A stretch of 64,000 nucleotides of DNA from Hydrolagus affinis (lineage: Eukaryota): positions 1 to 64,000 of the forward strand of contig JAAILG010000267.1 in assembly GCA_012026655.1 (NCBI GenBank), in the 5' to 3' direction. The notes below the pieces were generated by a model. That model was given only the letters and a program-made list of their open reading frames with translations, was not told the DNA's origin and did no database searches. Within the stretch, counting starts at the first letter, position 1. The number at the start of each line of letters is the position of its first letter. The position numbers were made by a program, and so were the translations under genes. This document shows positions 10,024-63,607 of this stretch, piece after piece.

Positions 10024-10068
10024 GTCCTCCAGGAGAAAAAGGAAAGCATGGTCGAAGAGGTAATCCAG
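10024..10068 (+). CDS. Collagen exon, 45 nt, phase 1-1: (G)[14 protein letters not shown](G)
   Basis: ttttataccag|GTCCT...CCAG|gtaggt; first COL1 exon, resembles GPPGKRGKRGRRGES of collagen XXV. Confidence 0.9.
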
Positions 10069-13000
10069 GTAGGTGAAGAGCTCGCCATGTTTTACAGACA
10101 AGTCATTATCTTTATGTTTCTCGTTTTATATAGATAGTCTATGAAGAGAGCTAGGAATAAGCAAGTTATAACATTGAAAGTTATTCTCTTGTAAATTATT
10201 TCCAAGAACATAGTCTATATGTTATATTTTGTGAAATGTTTTGAGATGTCTTCCCAATGTGAAAGGAGCTATATCAATATCAAATTATTATTCTATTTAT
10301 TCAAATCTTTCAACCGTTATTTGTATAATAGTGCTTTAGATAGGCCTTGTTTGAGTTGTGTTAGCTTTTAAGGTATCTATAAATAGTACTAATGTAAATA
10401 GAGGTTTGCAGTTTAAAAAAATGTTTTATGAAGTAGGGATTTGTATTGGAGCCTCAAAACCAAAACTATGTATGAAGCCAAAATATTATTTATTAAGTAA
10501 CACAATTCAAGTACACAGTTCAGCTGTGTGCAATTGGCTGCCGCGTTTCACCCACAGTCAATTCACTTTACAGTATATTCTGTGAGGCTCTTTGAGACAT
10601 CGATAAGATGTGAAAAGCACTACATCAAATGCAAAGATCACTATTATTATTAAGTAACACCAATTGTATGTGAACCTTGTTTCCCCAATCAAACTATCAA
10701 TTACTATCAATGACCTGAAATGTGCTGACTTTCTGAAACTTTAAATTAGAAATGGTGAACTACCTTATCAAAACTCATGAAATCTGCACAATTTACCGTT
10801 TTGTAGGGTGATGGCATGACAAAACAATTTTGACTCGCAAAACCCTTTTCCTATTCTGTATCACACACATATCCTTCCATCCTAAATTACCATTTGTGCA
10901 ACTCATCAGCAACCACCGGTGGCAGAAATGCAGTAGTACAACAAAATCAATCAGGACAGACCTGCTGCATAAGCATTGTTTTAAGATTTAAACATTTTTA
11001 CATGATTGGGTTATTAATGATCAAATAACAGAGGAACCTGATTACAGCAGCCTTTGATATTGTGTTCCCTTGCTTATAGCGGACAGTGGTAGCCAGAAGC
11101 AACAGCAACATTGTTTATATAGTGCCCTTCATTCACTGCTGAGAATAACAACTTGAATGTCAAAAAGTCGATGTCCCTCTCTGCTATATGTTCACTACGC
11201 GTGCTACTAATGCCACCTTCTGTGCACTACCCATGCACACTATGCACGAGGCATTGCTTGCATCACCTTTGGTGCACTGTACATGTGCGCTAGGCGTTTC
11301 TTCAAGAAAAACCTGCTGCCAATTTGCAAATAAAATGTGGTGCATAGTGAGTGGCACTTCCTGCATATATTCTTTGTAATGAATACGAGCTTGTTCTTTT
11401 CTTTTGCTGAATTTCATTAAAATCATGTCAAGTTACAGTGGATAACATACTTAATCATGACACAGGTTTAAATGTAACGAAATTGTGGGTGTGAATCCAA
11501 CATTTTCTCATCAAATAATCCAAGGAAAATGTACCTCTTGCTTCAAAATGCAAGGCAGCTTCTCATGCACTAAATCATGTGTCCATCATCAGGTCGCCAC
11601 CGATGTCAGTTCCTGTGCACAGGTCGTGTGCATATGCATAGAAAGTGATGTTGTTAGCCACCTAATGACCCAGAATTAGCCAAGAACTTTCTGCGCTCAT
11701 TCAGAGTGAACATAGAAATACTAGCCAGAGATTGTGCCCCGTTATAATCCTAATAATCCTTACATTTGATATAGCACTTTTCACTTCTTGAAGACATCCC
11801 AAAGCCCAACACAGGAATATCGTGTGAAGTGCAGTGTTGTGTGTTTTGTGAACAAACGTGGTAGTCAATTTGTGCACAATTTTTGTTTTGATCAACCTGG
11901 TGTCTGAACATGCAGAAATCCATCACCATGCTTAAGAGTATCCATGAGGATTCCAAACATCCCACTACACATGGAGATCCTAGAGATCGATTGTTGGAAT
12001 GGAATATGCACTCTCTCCCTGGGGGGACATATCCTACTTACCTAATTCCAGGAAGTATCAGCGCAGGTTGGCAAGAGCCAAGGCTCGGGGACCCCAGAGT
12101 GTGTCTTGGGGTACTGCTGGATTCTAACCAGCTAAAACCACCTATCTTGCTATTGATATTGCTGGCAAGCCTTCTCACTGTTTGTCCAGCTAGGACCACC
12201 CTACCCATTAAGTGCTCTGGCTTGCAACAATGTCCCACAAACAGCCATGAAATGACCCTCCAGGGAGAGAGTGCACATTCCATTCCAACAATCTATTTCT
12301 AGAATTTCCATGCGTAGATGGGATGCATGGTATTCTCAGTTTGGCTTGGATACTCTTCAGCATTGTGATGGGTTTCCAAAGTGAATTGACCGCATTTTTG
12401 TTTGGGAGAAACATTGCAGTCAATTGCGCACAGTACTGTCCCACAAACAGTCGTGGATTGAAGTGACCAATTTATTATTTTATTTTCAATGACTAGACAG
12501 TAAGATTGGTTTTCTGGAAGAATTACATCAAATGAGTCAAAGATCTTCTTCATCCAAACTGATTTTGTGATCTAGAAGCTTGATGTTTGATCTGATCTTT
12601 TCCAACCGACTTTGGAAGAATAGTTTTTTCCAACAGTTTCAGGAAATTAGAAAATTGTTCAATCGCCAATATAGTTATCTCTAGGATAAATGTGTACTAA
12701 CTCTCTTGTCTTTATATAGGCTGATCTGTCTTTAATGTAATCCCATTTGCCTAAAAATAACTATTTTCTGACTTGGTATTATGACAAGTGATGTGATTTG
12801 TTGACTGAAGAGAATGAATGAGAATTAGATTGAAACTTGTGTTGACATTTTCCAGAAGGCAGCAGTGTAATATCTTTTGTTTCTTTTATTTACAGGATCA
12901 TCTGTAAGTACATGAAGGGCTTGTGTTGCTCATGGGAACCGTTGGGTAAAAAAAGACTATGTGTCAGCAGGCTTCTGCTTAATATATTGCATTCTGGATA

Positions 13001-16000
13001 TTAGTTTATTTCTGCTGTATTATTTCATTGTTGTGTAACCTTTTTGTTTCTATGAAGTCTGCATTTGATATTATCCTTGTACTGCAGTCATTTATGTCTT
13101 ACATTAAATGGATTTAATAATGGGATGAAACACTATCCTGTGCATCTTTCCGTAGTGCACATTTTAATTTAAGTGCCTTTTTAAATAAAACTAATAAATC
13201 CAGTTTATTGCTTTGGCTTGTTGTGCTGTATACATATAACATGTTCATGTTCTTTTTGTACTGCATTTTGTCCATTTTAGGGACCGCCAGGAAGAGATGG
13301 CTTTCCGGTAATTACTCTTTAAGTGCACCACTCACGCTTATATCTATTGAAAGCTTTGTTTGAATTAGATTCTTTGCTCGGAATGCTTGATCTTGATTCA
13401 AACTCTGTTGTGCATCTATCCCTATTCTGTTGCGGAAACTTGCCTCTACTAACTTTCTGTCCACACCCTTTAATAAATATCTTTCTTTTTTTTAACAAAG
13501 CAACCCAAAGAGGAAAACTAATGATGGTGTTTAGAATGATTGCAGACAAGGTTGAATCCCCAGTTATTAAACATGCTAAAGTCATCAACTTTATCATTGT
13601 ATTCAACTATTTTGCAATCATTTGCTTCCTGAACTCTGGGTCTCATAGCATTTGTTCTAAGGCTGTGGATGGAAACCTTTTTAACGGCATTAGCATACAA
13701 CCAAGTTTTTTGTATGCTGACTGCTATTTCTCAGTGTTAACTCTTGGCCTAGCAGTCTGGTAGTTTGGTGTGTAAAGCAATGTTCAGCAGCATCTAACAG
13801 GAAACATCATGCTTTGTGTACAACCATTAAATCATGGGAAGCTGGTGATATTTCTTTGCATTGGTCATGGAGCAGCTTATGTGATGTATAATGCGTTGGC
13901 AACTTAGCAGGCTTTGAGGTATAATCATTACTTTTTTTCTGTTCAATTCTGACTATACATTGATTATTAGGGAAACAAAGGAGCATTGGGTCTACCAGGG
14001 AGAAAGGTAAGTTTTGTTGCATCTAATTCTAGCCTGTGGACATACGCCTGATGCCTTACGCAGCTATCCTAAGCATTTTATGCTGTGCTGTAAAAGCAAA
14101 ATCAACAATCGTTTCAGCTATATATTAATAGGCTGTCTAAAGTCATTTAAAGCTGCAATATACCACCTGTTCCTAGTTAGCCTGGATAAGCTGTATCCAA
14201 AATTGTGTCAATACAATATTTCATCTCTGCTAACATGTACAAAATTTGTGTGTATATATAAATCATTGGAAAATGGCACCATTTTTAGCAGTGTGGCAGT
14301 CCTTGACTGTCATGTGTTCTCCCATGAGAGTCATTGAGTAAACATTTGTTAAAGATCAGACCAACATTTGGCTTACCAAGGATAGCTGAACTTTGTTAAA
14401 TTGATGATGTACAGGGTTTATTTTATTTCAAATGCCTGGATACTGCAGCCTTAAACCGTGCATTTGACTAAGCAGCTTAATTGCATCCTTTGAGAGACCT
14501 TTTTTCCTCATTTGTGGCTCTACCTGACGCCTTCTTCATAAACCAATTTCCGTCACTTCCATGAATTGAAACACCATTATTTCATTTTAAAAAGAACATA
14601 ACGCTGATAGGATTTCATTGAATTTCTGAGCAGGGTCAGAGTCATTTAAATTGGATTGATGTGCTTTGTAGTTGTGGTTTGCATTATATATGTGTATGTA
14701 TATGTGCAATATTAAAAATTACCTTTCCTACATTGCAGCTGCTGCTTTTCATATCAGTTTTTAAATGGACTGTTTGGTCAATCCCTTCCGTTTTGAGTAA
14801 AAAAATTCCCCTCCAAAAAGAATTGGTATTTCGTTTGTCATTATTACAAACAACTATAGCACAATCTGTGGTATATACAACAGATAACACTCAATGCCTA
14901 TTACTTATTGAAACCTAAGAAAATATTTAGACATTGAAAAGTATGGAAATATTTCAGCCTTTTTAACATTTTTAAAATTTAAAAATGTTTTTTTTTAACA
15001 ATTTTAGCCTTTTTAAAATTATATTTCATTGCTGTTCGTTTTACCTCATTGTCATGCACTTCTCTGATCATTTTTGAATACAGTGCTTTGTTATGCAGAG
15101 GTATTGGTATCTATGAAGGATATTAACAAGCACATTTATCACTCTGCAAAGAATTGTTATTTTCTGTCTTTAGCTGTAATAGCAGACACTACGTGATTGT
15201 TAAATGTTTCATTGCTATAAAGTGAACAAATCCCAAATACAGTAGAACCTGTGGGTTAGAATTGGCATGAAAACATACTCCTGGGTTGAGCTCGCTAATG
15301 ATAGACATGTAGGAAATTGTAAACAGCTCAACTGAGTTTTAAAACAACAACAACTTGAATTTATATAGCGCTCTGCATACTGGGTAGCATCTCAGAGCAC
15401 TTAAAAATTGGGCTCCTATTAAGGTTGTGAAAGATCAGTGTTGTTGTAAGCAAACTTGCTGAAGAAAGTAAAGAGAAAGTATTTGCTGAATTTTTGGAAA
15501 AATGCTTGCAAGGGTTCAAATATAAGCTATATTTCAATGCTTGCAACTGTGTTTTTCTAAGTGTTATACTCTTTCTCTGGTCCTCTCCTAACACTATTAA
15601 CTGTCAGCTAGTTTAAGAAACGATGTAAACTGATTATGATTTGCCCAGTGTAGCCTTTCTAAGTTTGGCACAAACTATCAAACATATTTCTCAGTAAAAT
15701 TATCTTGCAGGAGTTTACATAAAACATGCACCACAAAGTTTAGAACCTATCAACTTATCATATTTACTTTTCTTTCCACTTTCCCGAAAAAACAGATATA
15801 TGATTACATATTACATCAGAGGTGGGATAAATTAGAAATATAACATTTCCTGATGAGTAGAACAATATCGAGCATCAACAGATTTAAATGTTCTAAATTT
15901 CCACGGGGAGAAAATGAGGGATTTCTTCCTGTTATGCAAGGAGACTTATTTCTGTCAGTTTCATCTGCATGATCATTTTGCTGAGATCTTCAACACTGAC

Positions 16001-19000
16001 CTTTCACTTTATGTTAATTAGACTAAGCAATTAGGATAATGCCGGTTTGCTGAATGTCTCTCCTATTGTAGAACATAATGGAACTGATTCTTTCCCCTAT
16101 TTATATTGCAATAAATGTTCTTTTTGCATGCTTAAAATACGTTCATTTTGCAGACTGCGTTAAATGCATTTTTGCTATCTGGCTGCATGTTTGCAGGTTG
16201 AAGCTCTTGTGTTTTTAACAGGAATCTAAGAAGCATCGATAAATCCTGCATCTGTAATCAAGAATACAAATATGTATTTCTTATTAACACTACCTTTTCA
16301 ACTGTACAACCTGGATTTAATTGGAAAGAAACCAGGTTGATAGGATCAGTATTGTGTTTGTAGTCCTATTAAGTGACAAAACTACGTGACTGTGTTGAGC
16401 TCCAAAATGAATTGCTTGTCAATGGAATATCAGAATTGTGTCCATCCTGTATGTAGGTAGTCTGCTTCCTGAGCTAGGCAGGTCCACAGTACTCTTAAGG
16501 CAATGTTAGTGACAGGTCAGTCAGACTGGGTTGTCACCAGAATGTAGAGAGTCACACTGATCACTGGGTTCAGGATTCTGCCCACAAAACACAGACACTT
16601 CACTTTACAGTAATAACAACAACAAAATTACATTAACATGTCCCAAGGCACAGGACAGTCAGTGTTTCAGACCCGAGCTTGGTGTTGGGATTGGGGAAGG
16701 TGGAGGTAAAGGAGAGGATTTGGGGTGACCGATGGGACAGTCGGAAGAGGAGGGTCTTGACAAGGGACTTAAAGAAGACTGGGGAGGGGTCGATATCATG
16801 TGAAGCACTTTGGGATGTGAAAGACACTATTCCAAATGTAAGGATGATTACTTTTCCCATTTGCCTGAGAGAGTACACACTCCATTCCAGACAAAGTGAA
16901 ATTTCTGTGCACACATGGCATGCATATGTGGAACTCAGTCTGGTTTGGATACTCTTAAGCTTGGAGATACAAAATTGTGTAGTTTGAACTTCATACCTAG
17001 TAGGCAAGGATCCACAGCGTAAAACTACTAATATTTTGGCACTAAGTTTCTCAGAGAGACCATAAGGACATCTGATCGGGGTAATCGAAATGCCACACTG
17101 ATGAAGCAATGGATGCTGAAAGATTGTAGTGTGAGCATAAGAACCACCTTTATGAAGCATCCAAATCGTATTATGTTATACTGGATATAAAATAATGGGA
17201 TCTTCATTTTGATGAGACCCTAAATCACCACACACCTCCTCACAAAAACTTGTTAAAAATTCCCCCAAATAAATGTCTGTTTACAAGTGTTTATTCATGG
17301 TGTTTGAGGACCATAGACTCAATGTGTGAGTTTATACCTGAATAATGGATGAAAAGTTTGATTTCATTCATAAATTATAGCCCTGTATCTTTATGTTTAC
17401 ATTGCTTCAATTATTCATGATGTGTCCCATCAAGGGTCCACATATGTTTGATATATATAATAATAATAATCCTGCATAGACATTGAGTGCTTATGTTAGA
17501 GAAAAATATAGGTCAGCTCACATTTGAGCCTTCTCCATGTGCTTCATAGAAACTCCATCTCACAGATGATTCGTCTTAGCCTTAAGTTTGGCTAAATTGA
17601 AGAACTCCATTGATGCTCTGTAACTTCAAGCCCCATGGAGGGAGTAGCATATTCTTATTGAAGTTGAATTCAGTGCATAAGGAAATGAGAGAGCAAAACT
17701 AAATAATATTGCTTTGGCACTTTGTGTTGATGCAGCAAAAGTATGCTTACTAAAACTAAAGATGGCAAATCTTATGCTGTGCATCTTGCTTATTGAGTAT
17801 TCTGTTCTGTATAGGCATACGTTTTTTTGGCTGTGAATATGCTTCCAAGCAGATGACTTCAATGGCATGTGAGAAGTGCATTCGATTTTGTTAGTCTGAT
17901 ACTAATCCTCTTATTTGTGTCTCTCCTTTACTTTTGCATGCTGTTTGCTGTGACTGGCGCAGGGTCTAAAGGGGGAACCTGGTGAAAAGGTGAGTCACTA
18001 AAAGGAAAGGGAAGCTTCCCCATATAAGCAATATTTTTATGACACGTTAATTAATACAAAGTCTACTTGCTGGCTGCTTCAAAATCGCAGGTGTGTTAGG
18101 AAGAGCAAATTCACTTGCAAATGCCATTTCCAACTGCAGTAGTAGGGAATGATGAGTGGTGGCTTAAGATGGTAGCTTTTGTTCTGGAAACTCTTTTTGT
18201 TCCCCTTCCCTTCTCCCCATTTTTTCAACCGTGGCACATAGTCACATTAGTAACCCTGTTATATCACTCACTGGCCTGGCCATCAGAAGCATGATGCTTA
18301 CTATGAATGATTTTGGGCAGCACCACCACACACACATGCCACCACAACCCCTTTATTCCTTTCTTCCTCTTGTATACATTGAGTATCCTTTTGAATGCAT
18401 TGATATGTTCTGCTTCAACAACAGGTTCTAGTAGTGAGTTCACCATTGTTCCCCCTCTCCCGAGTAAAAGGTTCCTCCTCAACACCCTTTCGGATCTGTT
18501 GGTGGCTGTCTTATATTTCTGGGCCCACTCAATTTCCTTATTTTATTTCTCCAGTTTTTAGTGTTTTTAATGCCATTTTTTAGAAACTGGCTAGAATTGT
18601 TGAACTACTCAAATTTAAATGGATTTGATGATGTAAGTATTCTAACGAACATCCTTACAAATCAAGTCAAAAGTCCTTAAATAGCTGTCATCTACACTCA
18701 CAACTGCTGCCAGCCTTAAAACTTATTCCAAACCTAAATAAAATTAGATAAAATATAAATGTTAGATTCAATTTCTATTTTGGAAAATTACTCTTGGGAT
18801 TCAGTCAATGTGGATTTGACTCCAAGATGCCAATTTGATTACATTTGTTTATTTGTCCGGTATTGTTTAAAGATAATGTCATAACAATTTATCAGTTCTG
18901 ATCATTTTGCCAAGTATTAAACCATATTAGAGAAGAAGATTAGGAGTATAACCAAATATCTTATTGTTTATAAACGATGTGAATATTGTGCATTGTCCAG

Positions 19001-52000: not shown

Positions 52001-55000
52001 CCTTTATACTAAAGAAGGCATCATTGTAAACTCTAAATAGTCTATATAATGCTTTCACAGATTAAAATGGTCAGTCCTTTTCCCATTCCCAACTCTTGCA
52101 TCATTTTAAACATTTATGTTGCATTATTTAAAATACTCATTGGTTAACTAACTGGATTGTGGGATGATAACATAATAGCATGTGAAAATTACTGTACAAG
52201 TGACTAACCACTTGCTGTTCCTGAAGTTTGCAATACATGAGGATCATTAAAAATATCACATTCTAAGGCATTGCAATTTCAAATTTTACATACATCGACT
52301 TGAAATCAAGATTTTTCATTTGGAATTTGACTCAAAACATTTTTCTGATTTTAGATATGTGTCTGTGGAGGCCAAACAAGACATTGTAACTTTGTGAAGA
52401 GTGCTGCAATGGAATAGCTAGATTTTCTTTGCTTTCCCATTTCGTCCTAAACGTTAGACTAGTCTCCTTATATAAGTTCAAATATCTGACTTTCCCTCAT
52501 TCCCACCAATCCTGGTTAACTGTTTGAAACTTAGTAAACTAATAAATATAAAATAACCCAATATTTACAGAACCAAAGAATCTCTAAAGCTTGTTGGATT
52601 CACTTTTCGCCAGTAATATAGAGGGTGCCTTACAAATTTTCTAACAGACAGCCATAACAATCCCATTTAATACCCCTTTACCAACTACTGATCATTTTAC
52701 TATATATGGCAAGGTCATCTGAAATGTTAACAGCTGTACCATGGCATAATAGTCCTGAAATTCTGTTATTCTGTTTATCTACTGGTCTCTATGTATGTGA
52801 ACTCGCCTCCGATTTTATTTTCTATCCTTTTTAGGGCATACCAAGTTCAGCTGCTTTTGGGTTAAAGGTTAGTTAAAGTACAACATTGTCAAACCCAATT
52901 ATTTTCCAAGGTGGTTTCTTTCATTGGTAAATTTCACTTTCCTTTGTCTCTCTTCATTTCTGATCTATTGGTCTTCACACTTTCTTTTGGACACAGGGAG
53001 AGCCAGGGAATATTGGACCTCCGGGAAAAAAGGTATAATACCACTTTATGTATTGATAGTTTTGTTTGTGGCCTCCACCACTGCATGTTCCCTCAGACCT
53101 CAAGACCCATATCCATTCATCATCATGTCCAGGCTTGACTATGTTGTTCCTGACTCGCTGGTCTTCCCAACTTTTCCCTTTACAAGATGCAGATTATTCA
53201 AAACACAGCAGCTCACATCCTGACCCACGTAAACCCCCATGAACCAATTGCTTCTATTGCCTGTGGCTCCCAATCCCCCAAAAGGTCAAATCTAAAATCC
53301 TTGTCCTCACTTCTAAATCCGTCTAATGATGCTCGTCCCTTCCTCCGCTGAGCGGGCACTGGCCTGGTCTGTGTCCCCTGATCTGCCAGACACATCATTT
53401 TGATGGTCAGATCTTCAGCTTTTCTGCATTATTATTATTATTATTATTATCCACCCTCTGTAACTCCCAGTATCCCTCCGCCCTCTCCCTTATCTCCTTA
53501 AAAGCCCATCTCAGGACATACATAAGCGTCTAGTCCTTCTAATCTCCTCTCCTATACGCTTCTATTTCCTTCTGCCTCATGTATTTAATGCTGGTCTGCC
53601 TTGCAGTTGGAACATAATTTGATCTAAGAGCTGATTTAAACTTGTCATATAAGTATAATGGATGGATTTGTATGTTTGGTTTACATAAAGACTTAAACCT
53701 ATAACAGCAATTCTATGAAACTTGATACCTTACTGAACCACTCACTCCATTGTGTGTTGTTTTATAATGCCAGCTAACTGTGTCTTCGGGAATCAATAAG
53801 TCCCAACCTGTATTTTACTTACTATAAATGTATTTGAACAGCTGTACGAGTATGAAATCCAATCCACCGTTTATCATCTATGTTGTGAAATGTTCTGTAG
53901 GCTTGTCAATCCAAGAGGGCCTTTATGTAAGTCATTTGATCATCACTCCAGTTAAGCCTTCTTTCACACCTTCAAGCCCCAGTGGGCTGATTTATGGTGC
54001 TTAATGCTCCACAAATGTAAAACGGATTAATGTAATCAGCTGATGCAGTTGAATTGTCAAAATGAATAACTTCATAATGTCCCAGGCATACGAACTCGAG
54101 AAACTTGAGAAGGTTCCTGTTTAATTGTCACTGTTACATGTTCTGTACCTCACCTTGAAGCTCTGACTCCAGTGTTGTTTTATTGAGAATATAATGTATT
54201 TTAAAGTTCATTCTCAATTAGCTTTTTTTTTAATCGAGTCTTGTGTGGTGATTTCCTCCTTTCGTATTCAAATATATATAGGGTGAACCAGGTCTTCGTG
54301 GTCTTCGAGGGAGGAGAGGTCTTAGGGTAGGACTTGCTGCGTGGATTTGATTGACTCATTGGTGCATGGATCTGGAGCTATATTTACCATTGCATTTACC
54401 TCCCAAGAAATTACAGCTAGTTTTGTTTAAAAACTAGTTTTGTGTTGAACCAAAATTGGTGATTTTTAACATGTACATATTAGAGGCATTTGCATGGTGA
54501 TATATAACTGACCACTACCGGACCAATTAAGGCTGTTATTGTTATATCATTTGTGTAATATCTATCTAACATTTTACACAGTGATTTAAGTTATTGGTAA
54601 ATGCTTTTTTCCCTAAAATGTTTAGCAATATTACAGCTCTGTACTCTGTGCTGGGTTGCCTGCTTTCTACACTATTCATAAGTGGCTTGGAACGGTGTAA
54701 CCTTATTTAAAATTGCTGACAAATATCCAGTATCCTGTAATACAGAGATAAATGGCATGCAAAGAGATCTGAACCAATTATGATAATAAAGTTTAAAAAA
54801 ATGTTTTCATACTGCCACAATGAAGCAAATTAGAATAGTAAAAATGTTCTCAATGAAGGTGTGCCCACTGTAGGAAATGGGGGAAAAAGGATTTGGCGTG
54901 GTTACCAATCATTAACTGAAGGTATCCAGTGAATGTGTGGATACCATCAATAAATCTAATAATTAGTTGCATGTCAAAAAGATTTGACCAAATCAATTAA

Positions 55001-58000
55001 AATACTGTGCCATTTGGGCAATCTATATTCAAAAGGACATTGGTACATTTGAGCGGAAAATAAGAAGAATGCTGAGGACCATTTCAGAACTTGGGGCTCT
55101 AAATAAGAGGAGGTATGCAGTTAAATCTGTTACAGAAAGACTGAGAGGGAGAGAATGTGCCCTGATTTAACTCTTTAAAATGATGAACTGCATAGATCAT
55201 GTAGATTTGGATTCTGTTTGTGGAAGGAAATGGCTTAAGGTTATTGAACCTTAAATGAGGCAATAGAAAGGAGCATTTACTATTGGCACATATGTTTTAC
55301 AAAAAACAAATTCCCTATGGAGCACTTTGAGATGTGTTTCTGTAAAAATTCAAGTTCTTTCTTAGGTGGAAGAGTATTTCAGCAAAAGTAGTTGAGAGTT
55401 CAGTTGTGCAGGGCAATTCCTTCAAAGAAAGTGGATAAAGGTTGGGAATGGGATTGAAAATAATTTGAGTTAAGATTATCTAAATGTAGGTTGTAATAAT
55501 CAAATGCTTTTTGCGACGCAAGCCTTTGTGTGTTAGTGGGCGCACATGTTACTTTGGAGGAAAGGAATGAATCTGGAAAGTAGCCAATCATGGTTGAGTT
55601 GTGTGAAGATGGATAGACTGTGTGGAGTTTTACTTTGTAGTTTTGGGGGATTGAGGACCTGTTCACTGAAGAGATGGAGTCCACAATAGAGTATGTAGAC
55701 AGAGCAAGCTGGGAGGGTGAATATTTAAAGCTTTAAAGTAGCAAAATTATGACCTGAGTTTGTTTTCAGATAATGAATTCCCTAATTTAGGTCTCACATG
55801 TTGAAGAGCATCTGGTACATTTTGGTTTTGCAAAACAACTTGAAACATAGAATTTTGTGGATATCAGTGACTGTGAATCACTTTATTGAATGGATCACTG
55901 TCTTTGGAACATAATCTGAGAGGCTTTGACGAAATTAGTACATGACCTGAAAGCAAAGGAGAATATTGCTGGATAAATTCAGCCTAAAGTTGAAATTGGA
56001 GCACACTTCTCCAATATATTACAAAATAACATTTGCATAGTGATTTCACGTCAAGAAGGTGCTGGACAGTCAGGAATTTTCTGTTGCAATGTAAAATATT
56101 ATGCAGTAAACCAAAATCTATTGTACATTCTGTGCTTTATTTGACTCTTAAAGTGGCAAAATTAAAGTAATTTACATTCTTTTCCATTTGTACAAAAAAG
56201 CATCTTTTTATCACAATTTTTGAGGTTTAGAATTGGTTTTCACTGGAATTATAGATTATGGTTAGAAGAAATGTCAAACTGCTCTATTTGCTTATCATGT
56301 AGGGTGAAAATGGGATTCCAGGTGAAGCTGGAGAGAAGGTAAGGCTTGGTTCAGCGGATTCGATCCACTATACTGTGGCTTAAATATGGTTAAGCAATTT
56401 GAATCGGGAGGTGTTGGTTGCGATTGCTGAGGGAACTATGTACACTTGACAATCTCAGTGATTCAGAAAATGGCCAATCCCATCCCTTACTTGTGTTACC
56501 TTAACTGTAATTCAACAACTCATCAATAAAATGAAAGTTAGTGACAGAATTAACTTGCACAACTATAAATCCATAATGAAAAGTATATTTTGAAAACATG
56601 TTTAGGTCATGATTAATAGATATCTATTGTCCTGTTTATGTACATCTGTTTATGTAAATCCTAAGTCTTTTAGGATTTATTTATATCCTTTCAATTGAAT
56701 TTGCTGAGCTTTTGCCTGGCCACAACTGCATTTGTGTTCTTGTGCACTGCCAATGGTGTCTAATGCTCATCACAACTTTCCTGTGAATGTTCCAAGAAAT
56801 ATTCCACAACTGACTACAGAAAACAAAATGCTGTGTCCGTTAATTGTTTGACAATATGATCTTATTCAATAGGGTGAGAAAGGAGATGCGGGAATATCAA
56901 CCAATGGAATTAAAGGGGAACCGGGTTCAACTGGACCTCGTGGATCTCCAGGGCAAAAGGTTTTTATAAATATATATATATGTGTGTACAGTGTGTGTGT
57001 ATATAGCATATGTTTCATTGAAAACTTTTGCGTTCATTTGAATATGGTACGTCCATACTATTGAATGGAACCTTTCACCCTGGGTTTGTAATGTCACCAT
57101 CTTAACATTTCCAAGATATTTATAGCAATCATTAGATACAAATGAAAGCTCCACTTCTCAACAGTTTCAAAAGCCAACCTCAGAAGAGCACTTCTGCCAC
57201 ATTACTGTACCATGAAGTACTCCTCTCTTTTCATTATACTTTGTTGTATTTCTATCCTGATATGTACACAAATAATTGTAATTGCATCTATAATGTGCTC
57301 TAATTATTAACCAAATAACTTGCTGAAACACCCTCTTTTTGTGCTATTTCTCTTTAGTATTTCATAGCTCATATTAATCTTGAATCTGAAAGTTTTTTAG
57401 GAAAAGCCTGGGAAAATGGGAGAGCCTGGTTTGCATGGGCAGCAAGGATAAAAGGTGGCAACACTTGAGTTTAAAAAAACTGCTTAGAAGAATATTAAAT
57501 CTACAAATGTTTCTCTTTAACTCTCCTGATAGATTGGTACTAGTGAGAGATGTTTTAAAACTGCAATTTTTTTTGATGATTGATAAAATTCCTTGTGGTA
57601 TTGAACAATTTTTAACTTATTACATATTGCCTGTTAAAAAGCAACCAATAACACTGTTAAAAGGACAAAATGATTTTTACTTCACTTAAACCATTTTCCA
57701 AATTTAACTGCAGATCTGCACAATTTATTGGTAAGGCATGTATTGGTTTATAATATTAGATTTTAACAAAATAGGAATGAAAGTTTTTATTTTAAATATA
57801 TGTGAGCGTTGTTGAATTAAAGCATTATGACATGCCTCTTCTGTTCAAAAATCTCTTTTAATCCATAATACTGCTTTTGACTTAAATTGTCACCATTACC
57901 TGCCAAAATTGCTGTGCACAATTGTGCTGACATGTTTTCCGACAAATACACAGTCACTCCATTTCACATTAATTCCTGTGAAGAACTTTGAGACATCCAT

Positions 58001-61000
58001 GTTAATATGGGGCCAAATGCTGTAAGGCACCATACCAAATGCAAGGATTATTTATCAAATTGAAATTACCTTGAATGCATACAAACATCTTTGAGATGAG
58101 GTGCGTGAAGATTATTTCAGTCTCTTACTGTTATTATATTTCATCAACACTCACTTCTCTTGATGTGTTCGTCAGTATTTCAGACCCGAGCTGTGGTTGG
58201 GATCAGGGAGGGTGCAGGGAAGGGAGGGGAGGGGGATGACTAATGGCACAGTCGAAGAGAAGGGTCTTGAGGTGGGGCTTGAAGTAGGCTAGGGAGCGGG
58301 CGAGGCGGAGGGATTGCGGGATGTAATTCCAGAGGTTGGGGGCAGAATGGCTGAAGGCTCGCCTACCGATGTTGGGGTGGGTGGGTCGGGGGACATGGAG
58401 CAGGCCAGTCAGCGGAGAGAGCAGACAGGTTGGTAGGGGGTTAGAAGGTCACAGAAGTGTCTGTATATCATTCTCTTAAGTAAATGTTTTTCATTATACA
58501 TCATTTCAGGGGGACCCTGGCCGGCCCGGACCAAGGGTGAGTTTATTACTCTGGTGACTCAACTTTGATTACGACCTTCCGATTGAATGGCATAAATTTT
58601 TGTCTATTGGTCATCATCATTTAAACGATTTCCTATTTGAAAATGACTATGTTGCTTTGTAATCATATGATGTGTGTTTTAAAATCTATTGTGATAGTTT
58701 TTCTACTGACCCCCTCAAAGCTGACCGGTGTCCCATACTGTTTCCAGCATGCTCAGACATCATTAACCCTTTAATATCCAAGATCAAATTACAAGTACAG
58801 ATTTTTATCGCCTTCATGCTGTAGTGATGTGTTGATCTATTGTATATATTCTGTAGGGTTCGACAGGTCAGAGGGGTGAAGCAGGAAAAACTGAAATTAT
58901 CGATTACAATGGGAACATCAGTGAAGCTCTCCAGGTAAATTCCAGTAAAACTTGTACTGTATTACACACAAACAAGACTTTTAACTACAAGAGAATTTTT
59001 GATTGAGCACGTTGGTATTACTTTTGGATCAAATGACCCCAATTCTACATTTTAAGATGATTCCAGGTTCAGTTACCAATTATAACACTGCAGCTTTACA
59101 ACACTAGATTTATTTGCCAAATAACTAACTTAATTGTTTGAATTTCTTGATATAATTTGCCTCTACCTTCTCAGCTGTATTAGCACTATCTCTTTACCTT
59201 CCATCTTAACTTGAATCCATACTTCCTATAGTACAGTTAATAATAATAATTCTTGCATTTGATATAAAGCTTTTTACATCTTCCAGACATCTCAAAGTGC
59301 TTCACAGAATATACTGCAAAGTGAATTGACTGTATATATTTGGGCGAAACGTAGCAGCTAATTGTGCACAGCAGGGACCCACAAACAATTATGGATTGAA
59401 TTGACCAATTTTTTTTGAGGGATTATTATTAGGAGTGTGGAATAAGGAAACTTGCCCAAGGTTTTGTCCTTCCTGGAATTTAACCCAGGTCTCTCATTTG
59501 TAAGGAAGTGCTCTCACTACTGAGCTACAGGACTCCACAATGTTGAATGTTATATATACAGATTTCATGGTAGCAGGTGCTCTCCATATGTAGAATACAC
59601 ATAGTATGATTTCCATACTTTCATGTGATTTAATTCTTACCCCTCCAATAAAAACAAGTGATAATTAGTTATTTATGTTAGAGTCGATATGAGGGAAAAT
59701 AAGAGTTAATGTTTTAAATGTTATTTCACCTAAAAAAAATAGTGGTTCGTCTTTTATTTTTCAGGAAATCAGAACTTTAGCCCTGACGGTAACTAAATAG
59801 AATTTTATTGAATGCTTTATTGATTGCTTCTGCATTTTGAGCTGAAACAGAGTTGGTATTGTAAAGTTAGTGCATCCAATTATATTTATTATAACGGATG
59901 CTTTTAACTCTGTTAACTTTGGAATTCGGAAAACAGTAATTAACTGCCCTAACATTTGTCTGCAGTTGTCTCGATATATTACAAGTTGGAATTTATTTCA
60001 GAAGCAATATGTTCAATAACAAGGCTATTTATAAAAAAAAGTGTTATAAATTCATTAGAATATTTCTTGAATGCCATGTAAATAGTGTTGCAGTGTGTAT
60101 TTATATTTTTTGCACACTTAGATTATTATAACTGTTGAAGAAAACGTCCAGTGAGCACCATAAACATGACCTTTTGATGATGTCAAGCCTCTAATGGAAA
60201 TTCCTTTTATAATTGCGCACTAAAGGTGCTGGCTGTAACATCAGAATTTTACCCCGTATTATTTCTGTCTTTCACAAAAGGAACAGGGTATTGTACTTTC
60301 TCTCCTAAAAGTCCTCACTGCAATCACCAAGCTGTCAATAGTGACCTGAGATACCCTGTTCTCTCCACTCCTGCACCTCCCTGCAGCTGTAACATATGCC
60401 ATTGGCATCATTAAGCTTGCCTTGCAATTGCCCTTAAGAGCAAACTGTATAAAAAGGTAGAAAAATTGTGCTGTTTCTTAAACATGCACACAAAGCTTCA
60501 TTCACCTCTTCAGCATCCAGAGACGCTTGTTTGCTTCTGTAAATGACGGCTGTCCCTAAGTTGGGGAGAAATTAACAATGCACGTAATATGAAAGATTCT
60601 GATGATTGTTGAGTTATTGAGGGAAGCTACTCTACATGACTTGTGCATGACATAACCAGCATGATGTGATCTAGGTATATTGTTGGCATGTTTTACCTTT
60701 GCATTTATTAGCTGGTTTGTGTTGTCTACACATCTCTTTCTGAACCACCTTAGAATAATGGAATGTAAGGTCAGTCAGCCTGCTTCACTGAAAATAGAGG
60801 ACAACAAGACAGTGGATAGAGAGGGAAAAACCAAGTATTTTTAATTTGAAGTCAGCTGTTCACCAGCTAGGTAGAGCAATATAAAATATTTGGTAACCAC
60901 AGGATCGCCAGCTAGATTCAGTACATTAATTTGGTACTGAATTTTTCCAGTTCTGACATGTCTGGATCGACAATCCAGTACTGGCTTTGGGCCAATGTGT

Positions 61001-63607
61001 GGGGATTTCCCATGTAACCACTCGCTGACAGGTCTCACCACTGATGTTCAATGCAGTGGGTCCCAGCTGTGTGCAAAGGTCGGAAACGGTGGGCCTCTGT
61101 GGGGAGGGGAAAGGCAAGGGAAAATACAAATCTCCTACCAGGTGTGAGAGTCCTTTACATTGCCTTGCTTGGGAATATACTTTATATTTGAAGGAACGTC
61201 TCTTTTAATTTCTTCTTAATATGATTAGTTTCTGACTGAATTAAGGACATTTCAGTATCTCAATAATTTAGAAATAGGATCTGTTTGCATTACAGAAATT
61301 ATTTTCTAGCCTAAATGACAATTTCTGAAATTAAAACAGAAGTTCAGACTTCAGTGATATAACTGGAATAATTGCGTTTTTTGGCCACTGATTTAGAGAA
61401 CTCTTTCCAAAGTGCAACTGAAGAAACATGGTACTTGTAAATTTTATTACAGACTGGGTTTAATCCAAGACTGTTCAATGCGATTGATAGACCAAAGAAA
61501 AATGTGTTTAACATAAATATATTACAACCCACATCTGTAGCATTCACTTTTGTTTGTCTTTGTCGATCCGCCACTGTTGAGCACTCTGGGGCGCTACCCT
61601 GTGTGAGCGGTGCTTTATAAATGCAAGTTGTTGCTTTCTCTCCTTCAACCAATTTCACACAATGAATCTTTCTTAAAGTCCGCATTAGAGAACAAATGCA
61701 GCCATAGACATCTCCTGTGTCTCTCTAGCAATACTGTTTGATGCTGGAATGTACCCCCAGTACGCGGCAATTGAAATAAATAATTCTCACTCCCTCTCAC
61801 TGACTGACAAGAAAAATTACAATTTGTTATGTAGTCCTGAAAGTGTGTACTGGCTGACGTGAAGAATGTGACTCTGGGTATCTTCAGGCAGTAATGTTTG
61901 GATGTTATTTTATTATCATAATAAATGCAACACCTGATTTAATAATGGAACACCTAATTATTTTACAGTTTTTGTACTTCTCACATGCATGCACAATAAA
62001 TATGTTTGTGTGCCTTAAAAGAAAACTTAGAAATTGATATCTGCCCACCATTTTACTTTTGATACTTTTCTTTAGACATTTGAGTGTGTGATTTTGTCTT
62101 GAAACATTCTTTTGGAGCAATTAAGTGATGATAATGTTTGATTTGCAGGGTCCCCCAGGACTTCCCGGACACCCAGGCCAAAAGGTATAGTTTTTGCCTA
62201 TTTCTATTGTTAAAAGACATGAATTCTGCCTCTGATCTGTTGAGTTAAAAGAAGTCGATATATTTTAAGAATAAGCAAAACCAAATGGTCAGTCAACCCA
62301 CAAGTCAACAATATTGCGATTGCTTGACTCACCACAGTCTAATGCTTATAAAACCTGTTTAACTGTACTGCTTAATGTAGAAGGTGCGTACAATGTTGGG
62401 CAAGAATATTTTGTCTGGATATTTTCTACAATTTACAGAAGTCAAAGCGAAAAACATACCTTGAATCATTATGTATTTTTAGGGTGAAATAGGCTTGCCG
62501 GGTACATCAGGACTTGATGGAGAAAAGGTACTTTAACTTTTTGTTAACTCGGAAAATGCATCCTAGTTTTGTTTTGCTGACAGTTTGAAGTTTCAGTATA
62601 CTTGCCAGAACAAGTGGCTTATTGTATTATTTAAATATCAGTCAAACCTAGCTGTGTGTCTGTTGCTTTAGGGTCCTCGCGGTAAACCGGGTGAGATTGG
62701 ATTGCCTGGCCCTGAAGGCCCAAGAGGCATTGAAGGGTCTAAAGGAGAACCAGGAATTACGGGATTCCCAGGACCTAAAGGAAACAAGGGAGAAGTTGGC
62801 CAGGCAGGTTCTCCGGTGTGTTCAAGTGTTTCAAACAATGTTCTAAGCATGAGTCATCTAGACCAATAGACCAACTTCTTTCATATCACTTGATGGTATT
62901 GCACGTTTTAGCTCCAATCCATTTCTGGTTTAGTATCTCAGGATTATGTAGATAAGGTATTTCTAAAGACAGTTTATGTGATTGTCCATATGTGACAATG
63001 TTAACAGGCAGAATTTATGTATTAGTCAGATTTATTTAAGATTAATATACCTACCATATATGTAGCTTTCTCCTCTCTTTCATGTTTAGTTTCCCAGCAA
63101 TCAAATATTTGAAGCTTAAATGATTTTTGAGGGTGCTTTATGTAAAGACCAGTTTCTGATCGGTGGCTCTAATATGTTGTTAGGGTATGGATGGGCCGAC
63201 CGGTGAAAAGGGAGAAAGAGGGGAACCTGGATTGCAAGGTCCATCTGGCCTGCCAGGTCCTGTTGGTCTTCCCGGGACACCTGTAAGTATCAGTTCGCTC
63301 TGAGACACCGCCAGGCGTGGAGGGCGCTATATAAATCAAAGTTGTTGTTGTTGGTGCATGAATGGAGACTTTCTCCAACATATCATTTCAGTAATGTGTT
63401 TATGAAGTATTCTACAACATAGACAAAGTTTTCTACTGTGAGAAGTTGCACACAGATAGTTGTGCAGGAGTTTGGCGGGGTAGGATCTGTCTTCACTGAA
63501 ACTTGCATGTTTCTTCATAGCAGTAGATGATAAATACTGGTAGATAATGATGCATGTTTTTTTTTCTTTTTTAATTCTAGGGAGATAGAGGAGAAAAGGG
63601 TGATGGG
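10024..63607 (+). CDS. COL13A1: Multi-exon MACIT transmembrane collagen gene (internal part: COL1-NC2-COL2-NC3-COL3), most similar to collagen alpha-1(XIII); orthology not certain
   Basis: 37 AG/GT-bounded exons, mostly multiples of 9 nt, give continuous Gly-X-Y. Diagnostic peptides [51 protein letters not shown] and GEIGLPG..G.DGEK-GPRGKPG match collagen XIII as I recall it; some segments look more like XXV/XXIII. Family call is firm; the symbol is tentative. Confidence 0.7.
10520..10651 (+). mobile_element. SINE 3' half with L2-like tail (other 3' fragments at ~33845-34015 +, 48750-48905 +, 49105-49202 +, 57909-58053 +, 11745-11880 -, 12378-12480 -, 35965-36075 -)
   Basis: GCTGTGTGCAATTGGCTGCCGCGTTTC...CAGTCAATTCACT...GTGAAAAGCACTACATCAAATGCAA..(TTA)n. 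Confidence 0.85.
11915..12228. repeat. Unclassified ~310-bp interspersed repeat (copies at 47031-47340; inverted partials at 12256-12377, 16868-16962, and 5070-5200 + 6083-6135)
   Basis: Direct alignment by eye: GATTGTTGGAATGGAAT...CTCTCCCTGG...CAGGTTGGCAAGAGCCAAGGCT.GGGGACCCCAGAG...GTCCAGCTAGGACCACCCTACCCATTAAG. Confidence 0.85.
12896..12903 (+). CDS. 8-nt microexon GATCATCT, (G)SS, phase 1 to 0
   Basis: Strong pyrimidine tract ...ttttatttacag| and |gtaagt; needed to convert phase 1 to phase 0. Confidence 0.85.
13281..13307 (+). CDS. Collagen exon 27 nt GPPGRDGFP
   Basis: cattttag|GGA...CCG|gtaatt. Confidence 0.9.
13971..14006 (+). CDS. Collagen exon 36 nt [12 protein letters not shown]
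   Basis: attag|GGA...AAG|gtaagt; like COL13 GDKGAIGMPGRV. Confidence 0.9.
16610..16840 (-). mobile_element. L2 LINE 3' fragment
   Basis: Reverse complement of 9100-9320-like sequence with (AAC)n tail. Confidence 0.75.
17963..17989 (+). CDS. Collagen exon 27 nt GLKGEPGEK
   Basis: gcgcag|GGT...AAG|gtgagt. Confidence 0.88.
18236..18530 (-). mobile_element. CR1 LINE C-terminus/3'UTR remnant
   Basis: Minus frame ...[24 protein letters not shown] resembles the CR1 ORF2 end WNSLP..VVEA..I..FK..LD. Confidence 0.7.
21994..22044 (+). CDS. Collagen exon 51 nt [17 protein letters not shown]
   Basis: tttctttag|GGA...CCA|gtaagt; matches COL13 [17 protein letters not shown] including the interruption. 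Confidence 0.93.
23490..23760 (-). mobile_element. L2 3' end, second subfamily (short tails also at 1030-1090 +, 15343-15402 -, 21757-21830 -, 32492-32550 -, 61575-61635 +, 63293-63353 +)
   Basis: AACAACAACTTTGATTTATATAGCGCCCTCCATGCC...TCTCAGAGCG; reverse complement of the tail at 63293. Confidence 0.75.
24969..25004 (+). CDS. Collagen exon 36 nt [12 protein letters not shown]
   Basis: atgcag|GGT...CCG|gtgtgt; COL13 GQPGTRGFPGFP. Confidence 0.92.
28029..28055 (+). CDS. Collagen exon 27 nt GPIGLDGKN
   Basis: ttttgaag|GGC...AAC|gtaagt; COL13 GPIGLDGKP. Confidence 0.92.
28456..28482 (+). pseudogene. Collagen exon GKMGQKGEM with defective acceptor (AA in frame; the available AG gives a 26-nt frameshifting exon)
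   Basis: atttcaa|GGG AAG ATG GGT CAA AAA GGT GAA ATG|gtaaga; positional match to COL13 GHPGPKGDM. Confidence 0.65.
29108..29134 (+). CDS. Collagen exon 27 nt GSPGSRGEK
   Basis: tttatag|GGT...AAG|gtgaga. Confidence 0.88.
29229..29255 (+). CDS. Collagen exon 27 nt GEPGQNGEK
   Basis: gcaaag|GGT...AAG|gtaaga; 94-nt upstream intron. Confidence 0.88.
30307..30336 (+). CDS. Collagen exon 30 nt [10 protein letters not shown]
   Basis: tttttttag|GGT...TTT|gtaagt; one extra residue interrupts the helix. Confidence 0.82.
31437..31454 (+). CDS. Collagen microexon 18 nt GLKGEK
   Basis: tgtgcag|GGT...AAG|gtgagc. Confidence 0.87.
32169..32290. repeat. Degenerate minisatellite, ~27-28 bp unit x ~4.5
   Basis: Unit approx. 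CAGTGAATGCACTAACATCTGATTTGG(A/G). Confidence 0.75.
33280..33306 (+). CDS. Collagen exon 27 nt GQRGNSGLS (end of COL1)
   Basis: ttcttttag|GGC...TCA|gtaagt. Confidence 0.87.
35594..35888 (+). mobile_element. Full-length tRNA-derived SINE with L2-like tail
   Basis: GGAGTCCTGTAGCT head, B-box-like GGGTTTAATTC, central A-run, tail GTGAAAAGCGCTATATCAAATGCAAGG(TTA)n. Confidence 0.9.
37054..37125 (+). CDS. NC2 non-collagenous exon 72 nt [24 protein letters not shown]
   Basis: ctgttcag|TTT...AAG|gtaaac; resembles COL25 MVFPKINHGFLSADQQLIKRRLIK (also 24 aa); acceptor position less certain than donor. Confidence 0.8.
37351..37467 (+). CDS. Exon 117 nt [39 protein letters not shown] (start of COL2)
   Basis: atctcag|GGT...CCA|gtatgt. 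Confidence 0.94.
37957..38001 (+). CDS. Collagen exon 45 nt [15 protein letters not shown]
   Basis: ttctcag|GGG...AGG|gtaggt. Confidence 0.92.
38799..38825 (+). CDS. Collagen exon 27 nt GSTGMTGMK
   Basis: tttttcag|GGC...AAG|gtaatg. Confidence 0.88.
39221..39247 (+). CDS. Collagen exon 27 nt GDSGRPGEK
   Basis: atcatag|GGT...AAG|gtaaga. Confidence 0.89.
39910..39945 (+). CDS. Collagen exon 36 nt [12 protein letters not shown]
   Basis: catccag|GGT...AAG|gtgatt. Confidence 0.88.
40412..40447 (+). CDS. Collagen exon 36 nt [12 protein letters not shown]
   Basis: ttttgcag|GGT...AAG|gttaga; COL13 GDPGIQGYHGRK. Confidence 0.9.
41760..41893 (+). mobile_element. Internally deleted SINE (tRNA head fused directly to tail), next to a Penelope-like end at ~41670-41757
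   Basis: GGAATCCTGTAACTCAGTGGTTAGAGCACTCGCC...GGTTCAATTC...CTTGGGCAA|AATGTGAAAAGCG...GGATTATTATTATT. Confidence 0.8.
43580..43978 (+). mobile_element. Old Deu-domain SINE (DeuSINE/AmnSINE1-like)
   Basis: AATCTAGGCTGGCACTC...GTTGGAGGTGCTGGCCTTTGGATGAAATGTTAAACC...TCAGGTG resembles the Deu core as recalled; L2-type tail. Confidence 0.65.
44780..44842 (+). CDS. Collagen exon 63 nt [21 protein letters not shown]
   Basis: ttctcag|GGA...AAG|gtaaaa. Confidence 0.92.
45363..45389 (+). CDS. Collagen exon 27 nt GDKGNIGHK
   Basis: tttaacag|GGA...AAG|gtagga. Confidence 0.87.
46088..46132 (+). CDS. Collagen exon 45 nt [15 protein letters not shown]
   Basis: tacacag|GGA...AGG|gtagct. Confidence 0.88.
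46790..47001. mobile_element. 212-bp Tc1-mariner (pogo/Tigger) MITE
   Basis: Perfect 19-bp TIR CAGTAAAAGCCCGTTTATC / GATAAACGGGCTTTTACTG with flanking TA duplication. Confidence 0.92.
47341..47620 (-). mobile_element. Decayed LINE ORF fragment (pre-RT region, RTE-like)
   Basis: Minus frames give [24 protein letters not shown] and [14 protein letters not shown], similar to the LINE motif A...L..GKA.G.DGI..E...W..G.IP. Confidence 0.45.
51886..51930 (+). CDS. Collagen exon 45 nt [15 protein letters not shown]
   Basis: ttttgtag|GGA...AAG|gtattc; COL13 GERGMPGMPGKHGAK. Confidence 0.91.
52835..52867 (+). CDS. Collagen exon 33 nt [11 protein letters not shown] (interruption)
   Basis: cttttttag|GGC...AAG|gttagt; COL13 GAPGIAVAGMK / COL25 GDPGSSAAGIK. 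Confidence 0.87.
52997..53032 (+). CDS. Collagen exon 36 nt [12 protein letters not shown]
   Basis: gacacag|GGA...AAG|gtataa. Confidence 0.89.
53070..53520 (+). mobile_element. Old L2 LINE fragment with inserted (ATT)n
   Basis: TCCAGGCTTGACTAT (SRLDY), CAGATTATTCAAAACACAGCAGCTCAC, TGGCTCCCAATC; homologous to 8440-9170. Confidence 0.75.
54282..54326 (+). CDS. Collagen exon 45 nt [15 protein letters not shown]
   Basis: atatatag|GGT...AGG|gtagga. Confidence 0.87.
54705..55260 (+). mobile_element. Highly decayed CR1 ORF2 remnant
   Basis: Remnants of motifs QRDL, EKDLGV, KDI..LE, RLRG...FKMM..ID.V. Confidence 0.5.
56303..56338 (+). CDS. Collagen exon 36 nt [12 protein letters not shown]
   Basis: catgtag|GGT...AAG|gtaagg. 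Confidence 0.9.
56873..56959 (+). CDS. Collagen exon 87 nt [29 protein letters not shown]
   Basis: tcaatag|GGT...AAG|gttttt (weak donor); COL13 [29 protein letters not shown]. Confidence 0.9.
57401..57454 (+). pseudogene. Degenerate or poison collagen exon, 54 nt: [17 protein letters not shown]
   Basis: ttttttag|GAA...GGA TAA AAG|gtggca; Gly periodicity kept but first Gly is Glu and TAA is at 57449-57451. Confidence 0.8.
58170..58455 (-). mobile_element. L2 LINE 3' fragment
   Basis: Reverse complement aligns to 8980-9260 (GGCGAGCCTTCAGCCATTCTGCCCC identical). Confidence 0.85.
58510..58536 (+). CDS. Collagen exon 27 nt GDPGRPGPR
   Basis: atttcag|GGG...AGG|gtgagt. Confidence 0.9.
58857..58934 (+). 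CDS. Exon 78 nt [26 protein letters not shown] (COL2 end / NC3 coiled coil)
   Basis: tctgtag|GGT...CAG|gtaaat; MACIT NC3 signature IDYNGN..EALQ. Confidence 0.95.
59239..59537 (-). mobile_element. Full-length tRNA-derived SINE with L2-like tail
   Basis: Reverse complement colinear with 35594-35888. Confidence 0.9.
59765..59788 (+). CDS. NC3 exon 24 nt EIRTLALT
   Basis: tttttcag|GAA...ACG|gtaact; COL13 EIRTLALM. Confidence 0.92.
62149..62184 (+). CDS. Collagen exon 36 nt [12 protein letters not shown] (start of COL3)
   Basis: tttgcag|GGT...AAG|gtatag. Confidence 0.9.
62483..62527 (+). CDS. Collagen exon 45 nt [15 protein letters not shown]
   Basis: atttttag|GGT...AAG|gtactt; COL13 [15 protein letters not shown]. 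Confidence 0.93.
62672..62815 (+). CDS. Collagen exon 144 nt [48 protein letters not shown]
   Basis: gctttag|GGT...CCG|gtgtgt; 16 perfect triplets; ends match COL13 GPRGKPG...GETGQAGSP. Confidence 0.95.
63184..63282 (+). CDS. Collagen exon 99 nt [33 protein letters not shown]
   Basis: ttgttag|GGT...CCT|gtaagt; 11 perfect triplets. Confidence 0.94.
63581..63607 (+). CDS. Collagen exon 27 nt GDRGEKGDG
   Basis: attctag|GGA...GGG|gtaagg. Confidence 0.88.

Follow-up and report, generated by a model that had tools for sequence, protein, structure and literature searches.

The 64,000-nucleotide stretch of Hydrolagus affinis DNA analysed here (the window) carries a long chain of collagen exons, and the question that it raises is which member of the MACIT family they encode. 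MACITs are type II membrane collagen trimers that are shed by furin and act in adhesion and at neuromuscular junctions (PMC4678570). The original prediction, made from the letters alone, had read the gene as a mosaic built from the XIII, XXIII and XXV types, representing either a fourth paralogue of these three or an ancestral-state collagen XIII. The second option fits best, while nothing that was tested favoured the first, and the window most probably covers the central part of a col13a1 orthologue from a fish. A fish gut metagenome contains a fraction of 0.31 of the sequence words, which points to a fish as the source.

The collagen gene at 10024-63607 is real. Splice-site profiling together with six-frame scans gave 38 exons on the + strand (Table 1), all 38 bounded by AG and GT; spliced together they amount to 1,700 nt and contain no stop codon. 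Perfect units, in which AG and GT enclose codons with glycine at every third position, number 28 on the + strand and zero on the - strand, and none occurred in 20 of 20 order-2 Markov controls. The predicted figure of 39 exon-like units was approximately right, the count now being 38 intact exons, two decayed ones and one doubtful 8-nt unit, and every quoted motif that was searched for lies on the + strand and in frame. The doubtful unit (36234-36241) has good splice sites; it matches no downstream frame, has a chance-like score and was rejected as an exon, being probably a chance occurrence. The 8-nt micro-exon at 12896-12903 is needed for the frame to stay open across the joined exons, and its acceptor (14.0 bits) is the strongest among the first 36 exons scored. 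We take COL13A1 to have an 8-nt exon as well, for which literature searches gave no confirmation.

Seven Gly-X-Y runs of 5-49 triplets each are broken by NC2 and NC3, and the chain includes two exons, at 36380-36436 and 52835-52867, that have no Gly-X-Y run. PF01391 was found in three of the five exons scanned, the remaining two being NC exons, and the exon at 37351 scored above the cut-off. The interrupted Gly-X-Y ectodomain (COL1-NC2-COL2-NC3-COL3) by which Tu et al. (2015) recognise MACITs is present in the window gene, with NC2 and NC3 homologous to those of XIII and XXV. Both gene ends fall outside the window, as predicted: motif searches of the window found neither a C-x-C-P exon upstream of 10024 nor, before 64000, the C-terminal motif of MACITs, which have 34 conserved residues with two cysteines at that end. 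No neighbouring gene was recognised within the window when the list of open reading frames was inspected by eye, and ARAGORN returned no match in it. The product would be a type II membrane collagen with its anchor, juxtamembrane furin site and C-terminal cysteines encoded beyond the window; by analogy with known MACITs it may form a homotrimer, undergo furin shedding, help cells adhere to the matrix and act at the neuromuscular junction.

Table 1. Exons, decayed exons, quoted motifs and RNA-covered exon positions of the collagen gene, in window coordinates.
Feature	Position	Strand	Remarks
Exon starting COL1	10024-10068	+	45 nt, phase 1-1
Micro-exon	12896-12903	+	8 nt, phase 1-0, frame-restoring
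COL1 exons	13281-13307, 13971-14006, 17963-17989, 21994-22044	+	
COL1 exons	24969-25004, 28029-28055, 29108-29134, 29229-29255	+	
COL1 exons	30307-30336, 31437-31454, 33280-33306	+	
NC2 exons	36380-36436, 37054-37125	+	19 aa, 24 aa
COL2 exons	37351-37467, 37957-38001, 38799-38825, 39221-39247	+	
COL2 exons	39910-39945, 40412-40447, 44780-44842, 45363-45389	+	
COL2 exons	46088-46132, 51886-51930, 52835-52867, 52997-53032	+	
COL2 exons	54282-54326, 56303-56338, 56873-56959, 58510-58536	+	
NC3 exons	58857-58934, 59765-59788	+	78 nt; 24 nt (EIRTLALT)
COL3 exons	62149-62184, 62483-62527, 62672-62815, 63184-63282, 63581-63607	+	gene runs past window
Decayed or mis-assembled exon	28457-28482	+	26 nt; nine codons less one base
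Dead exon	57401-57454	+	54 nt, first Gly lost, in-frame stop
GKHGRRGNP	10041	+	in frame
GRDGFP	13290	+	in frame
SIIGPRGPP	22018	+	in frame
12-letter motif of the original prediction	24969 exon	+	in frame
GQRGNSGLS	33280	+	in frame
LAADEQ	37081	+	in frame
TEIIDY	58890	+	in frame
EIRTL	59765	+	in frame
GPRGKP..GQAGSP exon	62672	+	in frame
GPSGLPGPV	63238	+	in frame
RNA depth, organism B	56314, 56885, 56923		24-34
RNA depth, organism B	58873		34
RNA depth, organism B	62760		54

The gene is expressed in a close relative (organism B), in one of two RNA runs. Expression was read from depth at exon versus intron positions, with the splice joints swamped by repeats. The RNA rows refer to variant positions only, and 38 of the 40 listed were used, from a set with 822 further rows, two in a high-copy repeat being dropped. 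Run X14 had depths of 24, 27, 34, 34 and 54 at five positions in exons against an intron background of 0-6 reads at 32 positions, and its first mates lay on the - strand, which fits a + strand transcript in the usual stranded library. Run X15, the second of the two, had 0 reads at those exon positions.

The exon chain was compared by eye with human XIII (NP_001123575), XXIII and XXV and with C. elegans COL-99, as printed in supplement 1 of PMC4678570. Each of the 28 human XIII segments over the span has an in-order counterpart in the window gene, 26 of them intact and two dead. Lengths are equal in 22 of the 28, a figure that is partly circular, the human borders having been inferred from the window gene. 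Human XIII and the window gene share the 36/51/36/27-nt COL1 series, the 19-aa NC2 segment, EIRTLAL and the GPRGKP..GQAGSP exon, and both have two imperfections in the COL2 triple helix (here in the exons at 52835 and 56873), whereas XXIII and XXV have one each. Identity to human XIII, counted by eye, is 8/12 for the exon at 13971, 14/17 for 21994, 11/12 for 24969, 8/9 for 28029, 11/15 for 51886 and 12/15 for 62483. The exon at 62672, a PF01391 match, agrees with human XIII at 33/48 positions (17/32 non-Gly), compared with a best of 9/32 for bird XXV, and the exon at 59765 agrees at 7/8 positions with human XIII and at 4/8 with human XXV. The gene thus belongs to the XIII branch of the MACIT collagens, and a mosaic is not supported. 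Human XIII differs in that its printed isoform has no counterpart of 12 exons present here, that two of its segments are dead here, and that its NC2-region cysteines are missing here, one new cysteine having appeared. Mouse Col13a1 presumably has exons matching those at 17963 and 63184, including one of the size of the latter; literature searches did not confirm this.

The mosaic reading is not supported: the exon backbone follows the order of human XIII. Inside one exon XXV-like residues alternate with XIII-like ones, a pattern that fits the retention of ancestral states rather than an exchange of blocks. The first COL1 exon, which had been called XXIII/XXV-like, is present in XXIII and XXV and absent from printed human XIII; it can be skipped in frame, and in COL25A1 c.367, which splits Gly123, is likewise an exon end. 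Residues of NC2 and of TEIIDYNGN are XXV-like, as proposed, but they are best read as ancestral, since Thr12 and Ile15 of NC3 are common to the window gene, XXIII and XXV, so that human XIII would be derived at these positions. The first NC2 exon (36380) scores 8/19 against human XIII and 10/19 against the bird XXV sequence P0182, and the NC3 exon at 58857 scores 17/26 against human XIII, 18/26 against human XXV and 19/26 against most bird and fish XXV-type frames, human XIII and human XXV agreeing with each other at 16/26. By residue count XXV also scores slightly above XIII for the consecutive COL2 exons at 52835, 52997, 54282 and 56873 (gapped). GPSGLPGPV had been taken as XXIII-like, and its exon (63184), for which the printed human XIII isoform offers no equivalent, does match an XXIII stretch at 13/22 non-Gly positions. 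GRDGFP had been assigned to XXIII as well, yet GPPGRDGFP matches XIII and XXIII equally, at 6/9. Nor is RG[FY]PGFPGPIGLDG diagnostic of XIII, for it is already found in COL-99, the single invertebrate MACIT of C. elegans, in which the RGFPGFPGPIGLDG motif is present. COL-99 further resembles the window gene in NG-x-I-x-E-x-L within NC3 and in extensive exon skipping, and differs in the interruptions themselves and in having long inserts in its NC regions.

Many exons of MACITs are in frame and subject to splicing (PMC4678570). Differential exon loss from a longer ancestor would account for the pattern described above without recombination. The ancestral MACIT may have carried a longer series of cassette exons, all in frame, of which each paralogue and lineage shed different ones, leaving a mixed look; the window gene would have retained the 12 exons missing from the printed human isoform along with ancestral NC2 and NC3 residues. 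The XIII cysteine of GQCGE is absent, as had been claimed, and neither of the two cysteines that human XIII has in its NC2 region is present (exons at 33280 and 36380); a cysteine does occur two exons later, in DNNCSP. The NC2-region pair was not taken as a defining mark of COL13A1. The DNNCSP residue (37351-37467) sits on the border between NC2 and COL2, a place without a cysteine in human XIII, and might link chains in place of the NC2 pair. The exon at 54282-54326 encodes five arginines in 15 residues, possibly a heparin-binding patch.

Were the gene a divergent col25a1 or col23a1, or else a genuine recombinant of two paralogues, the XXV/XXIII-like first exon and TEIIDYNGN would be explained, and a search of representatives returned 24 matches, four of them unrelated and the other 20, the exon-like ones, all XXV-type single-exon frames of NC3 exons, 68-76% identical. 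XXV (human, P0182 and the col25a1-type loci L015 and L016) has in common with the window gene the 45-nt first COL1 exon, the AD-x-Q-x motif and the 78+24-nt NC3 exons, the sizes in L015 (78) and L016 (78+24) being equal to those here. This reading is nevertheless extremely unlikely. COL25A1 is highly conserved (NC3 of the fish-like L015 is 24/26 identical to human) and has another exon series, whereas the best blastp identity of a 36-exon model of the window gene to P0182 was 40%. The printed XXV isoform is without the 36/51/36 COL1 series and has other exons before NC3, where L016 has 63/~69/45/45 nt and the window gene 87/(54 dead)/27. Neither mark of COL25A1, the 63/69/45/45-nt series before NC3 or an R-I-x-T-L-T-V-T exon, is present here. 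Human XXIII matches the first COL1 exon and the GEIGLPG exon at 11/15 each and shares one 10-letter stretch, which in XXIII sits after the COL3 interruption. It differs in having no NC2 exons, DYDG in place of DYNG and no 8-aa NC3 exon, and in being much shorter; the COL23A1 marks (a DYDG NC3 without the 8-aa exon, and no NC2 exons) are not those of the window gene. Against a recombinant stands the alternation of residue types within exons.

Cassette exons are still being lost from the gene, two being dead here and one lacking its donor in the relative. The 28457-28482 remnant occupies the place of the next 9-aa segment of XIII and that at 57401-57454 corresponds in position to an 18-aa human XIII segment, although the decay of either could be an assembly error. 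In organism B the in-frame COL2 cassette at 46088-46132 appears to be lost: its RNA depth is 1, compared with 24-54 at other exons, and in one contig and one RNA read organism B differs at 46132, the last exon base, and at 46133, the first base of the GT donor. The decaying exons of the window and of organism B, together with moderate divergence from human XIII, would also suit a partly decaying second copy of col13a1, either a duplicate peculiar to the lineage or a diverged copy, of tandem or segmental origin or left by a later doubling of the genome. We consider such a copy very unlikely, given a flat unique-region contig depth of ~38-45 in run X1 with no second long copy listed, and a frame that is intact across 38 exons of an expressed gene. 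If the window gene is col13a1 itself, it is an ordinary orthologue that offers a mildly useful map of a near-ancestral MACIT exon set, with in-frame exon loss caught in the act among close relatives.

Two rounds of vertebrate genome duplication (2R) bring in a rival that lies closer to XIII. In PMC4678570, XXIII and XXV are sisters, XIII is the survivor of the other pair, and the fourth MACIT is inferred to have been lost soon after 2R. Skate SI Table 3 (PMC10115646) pairs chicken 6 (1-alpha; LER15, LER34) with chicken 22 (1-beta; LER35), and PMC8040251 shows the four segments for paralogon 14, with Quad C empty for ADAMTS. The window gene might then be the fourth 2R MACIT, a 1-beta sister of COL13A1 (chicken 22/skate LER35/gar LG1) lost in mammals but kept, and still expressed, in a slowly evolving fish lineage. 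Because the empty slot (chicken 22/skate LER35) is XIII's own sister, XIII-like features are expected of its occupant too, and similarity is unable to part it from col13a1. In a matching COL3 stretch XXIII and XXV agree at 13/26 non-Gly positions and the window gene and XIII at 17/32, making the two pairs equally alike, and the NC2 and NC3 exons here are no nearer human XIII than XXV. Chondrichthyans are described as retaining ohnologues lost elsewhere, and the two dead exons and lost donor would fit a gene with XIII-like function under relaxed constraint, its cassettes being shed one by one. If true, this would overturn the early-loss inference of PMC4678570 and complete the 2R quartet, and genes labelled 'col13a1' in some fish may have to be checked.

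A fourth paralogue is nonetheless unlikely. Tu et al. reported a count of three MACITs for C. milii (PMC4678570; 2015 assembly, no shark synteny check), and the partial skate tables of PMC10115646 list Col13a1, Col25a1-1 and Col25a1-2 only, col23a1 being missing from them too, and place no MACIT gene id near Fgfr1/Unc5d (LE06974-07191). The same tables locate skate Col13a1 on LER34 beside Unc5b, Cdh23 and Adamts14, in the chicken-6, 1-alpha segment, so at least one chondrichthyan retains a true col13a1. The entry 'Col13a1.1' was rejected as a second skate gene: the same suffix occurs on other gene ids, and LER34 is the chicken-6 segment. The two skate Col25a1 entries, Col25a1-1 (LE13442) and Col25a1-2 (LE13836), are probably a split model, like Fgfr1-1/-2. 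The skate col13a1 bin has a GC of 0.410 (z -1.56), and the locus in the window has 36.0% GC in its introns and a GC3 of 30.6%. Small chromosomes tend to be GC-rich, and the low GC is unlike a small beta chromosome, a point that weighs little as C. milii is reported to have fused some small chromosomes. The resemblance of this GC-poor locus to the skate bin leans weakly toward orthology. Skate synteny, the C. milii count, the skate tables and GC lean the same way, and from them we infer orthology with col13a1.

A homologue search with the 48-aa exon gave 79 matches among 98 candidates, none named as a MACIT; a second gave 0 of 5 and missed P0182 despite a 10-residue exact match to the query. 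P0182 was the one MACIT among the 120 listed of 3272 matches. The homologue searches returned no col13a1 sequence, a blank that is uninformative given the missed P0182. An atlas query with the bird XXV sequence gave clusters labelled XXV and XIII that carry no sequences, PDB gave no match, and viral contigs contained 14 collagen-like loci, which were left out of the comparison. The open-access literature yielded no report of a fourth MACIT and nothing on col13a1+col25a1+col23a1 ohnologs, on the peptide strings or stating the mouse exons, and MACIT gene names did not appear in the available parts of the supplements of PMC8040251, PMC13188829 and PMC3964593. Further background came from PMC8302630, PMC10620051, PMC12669723, PMC7848082 and PMC11945623.

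The locus also contains several repeats. A tRNA-derived SINE with an L2-like tail lies at 35596-35890 (Rfam tRNA match 35596-35666), and tails related to its own, at very high contig depth, reappear across many introns; we take it to resemble holocephalan SINEs. An intronic tandem array at 32164-32287 comprises ~3 copies of a 27/28-bp unit. Related repeat copies at 11890-12310 and 47013-47597 each have an internal inverted segment, the latter with a 194-codon stop-free frame on the - strand, and this repeat is probably a non-autonomous mobile element.
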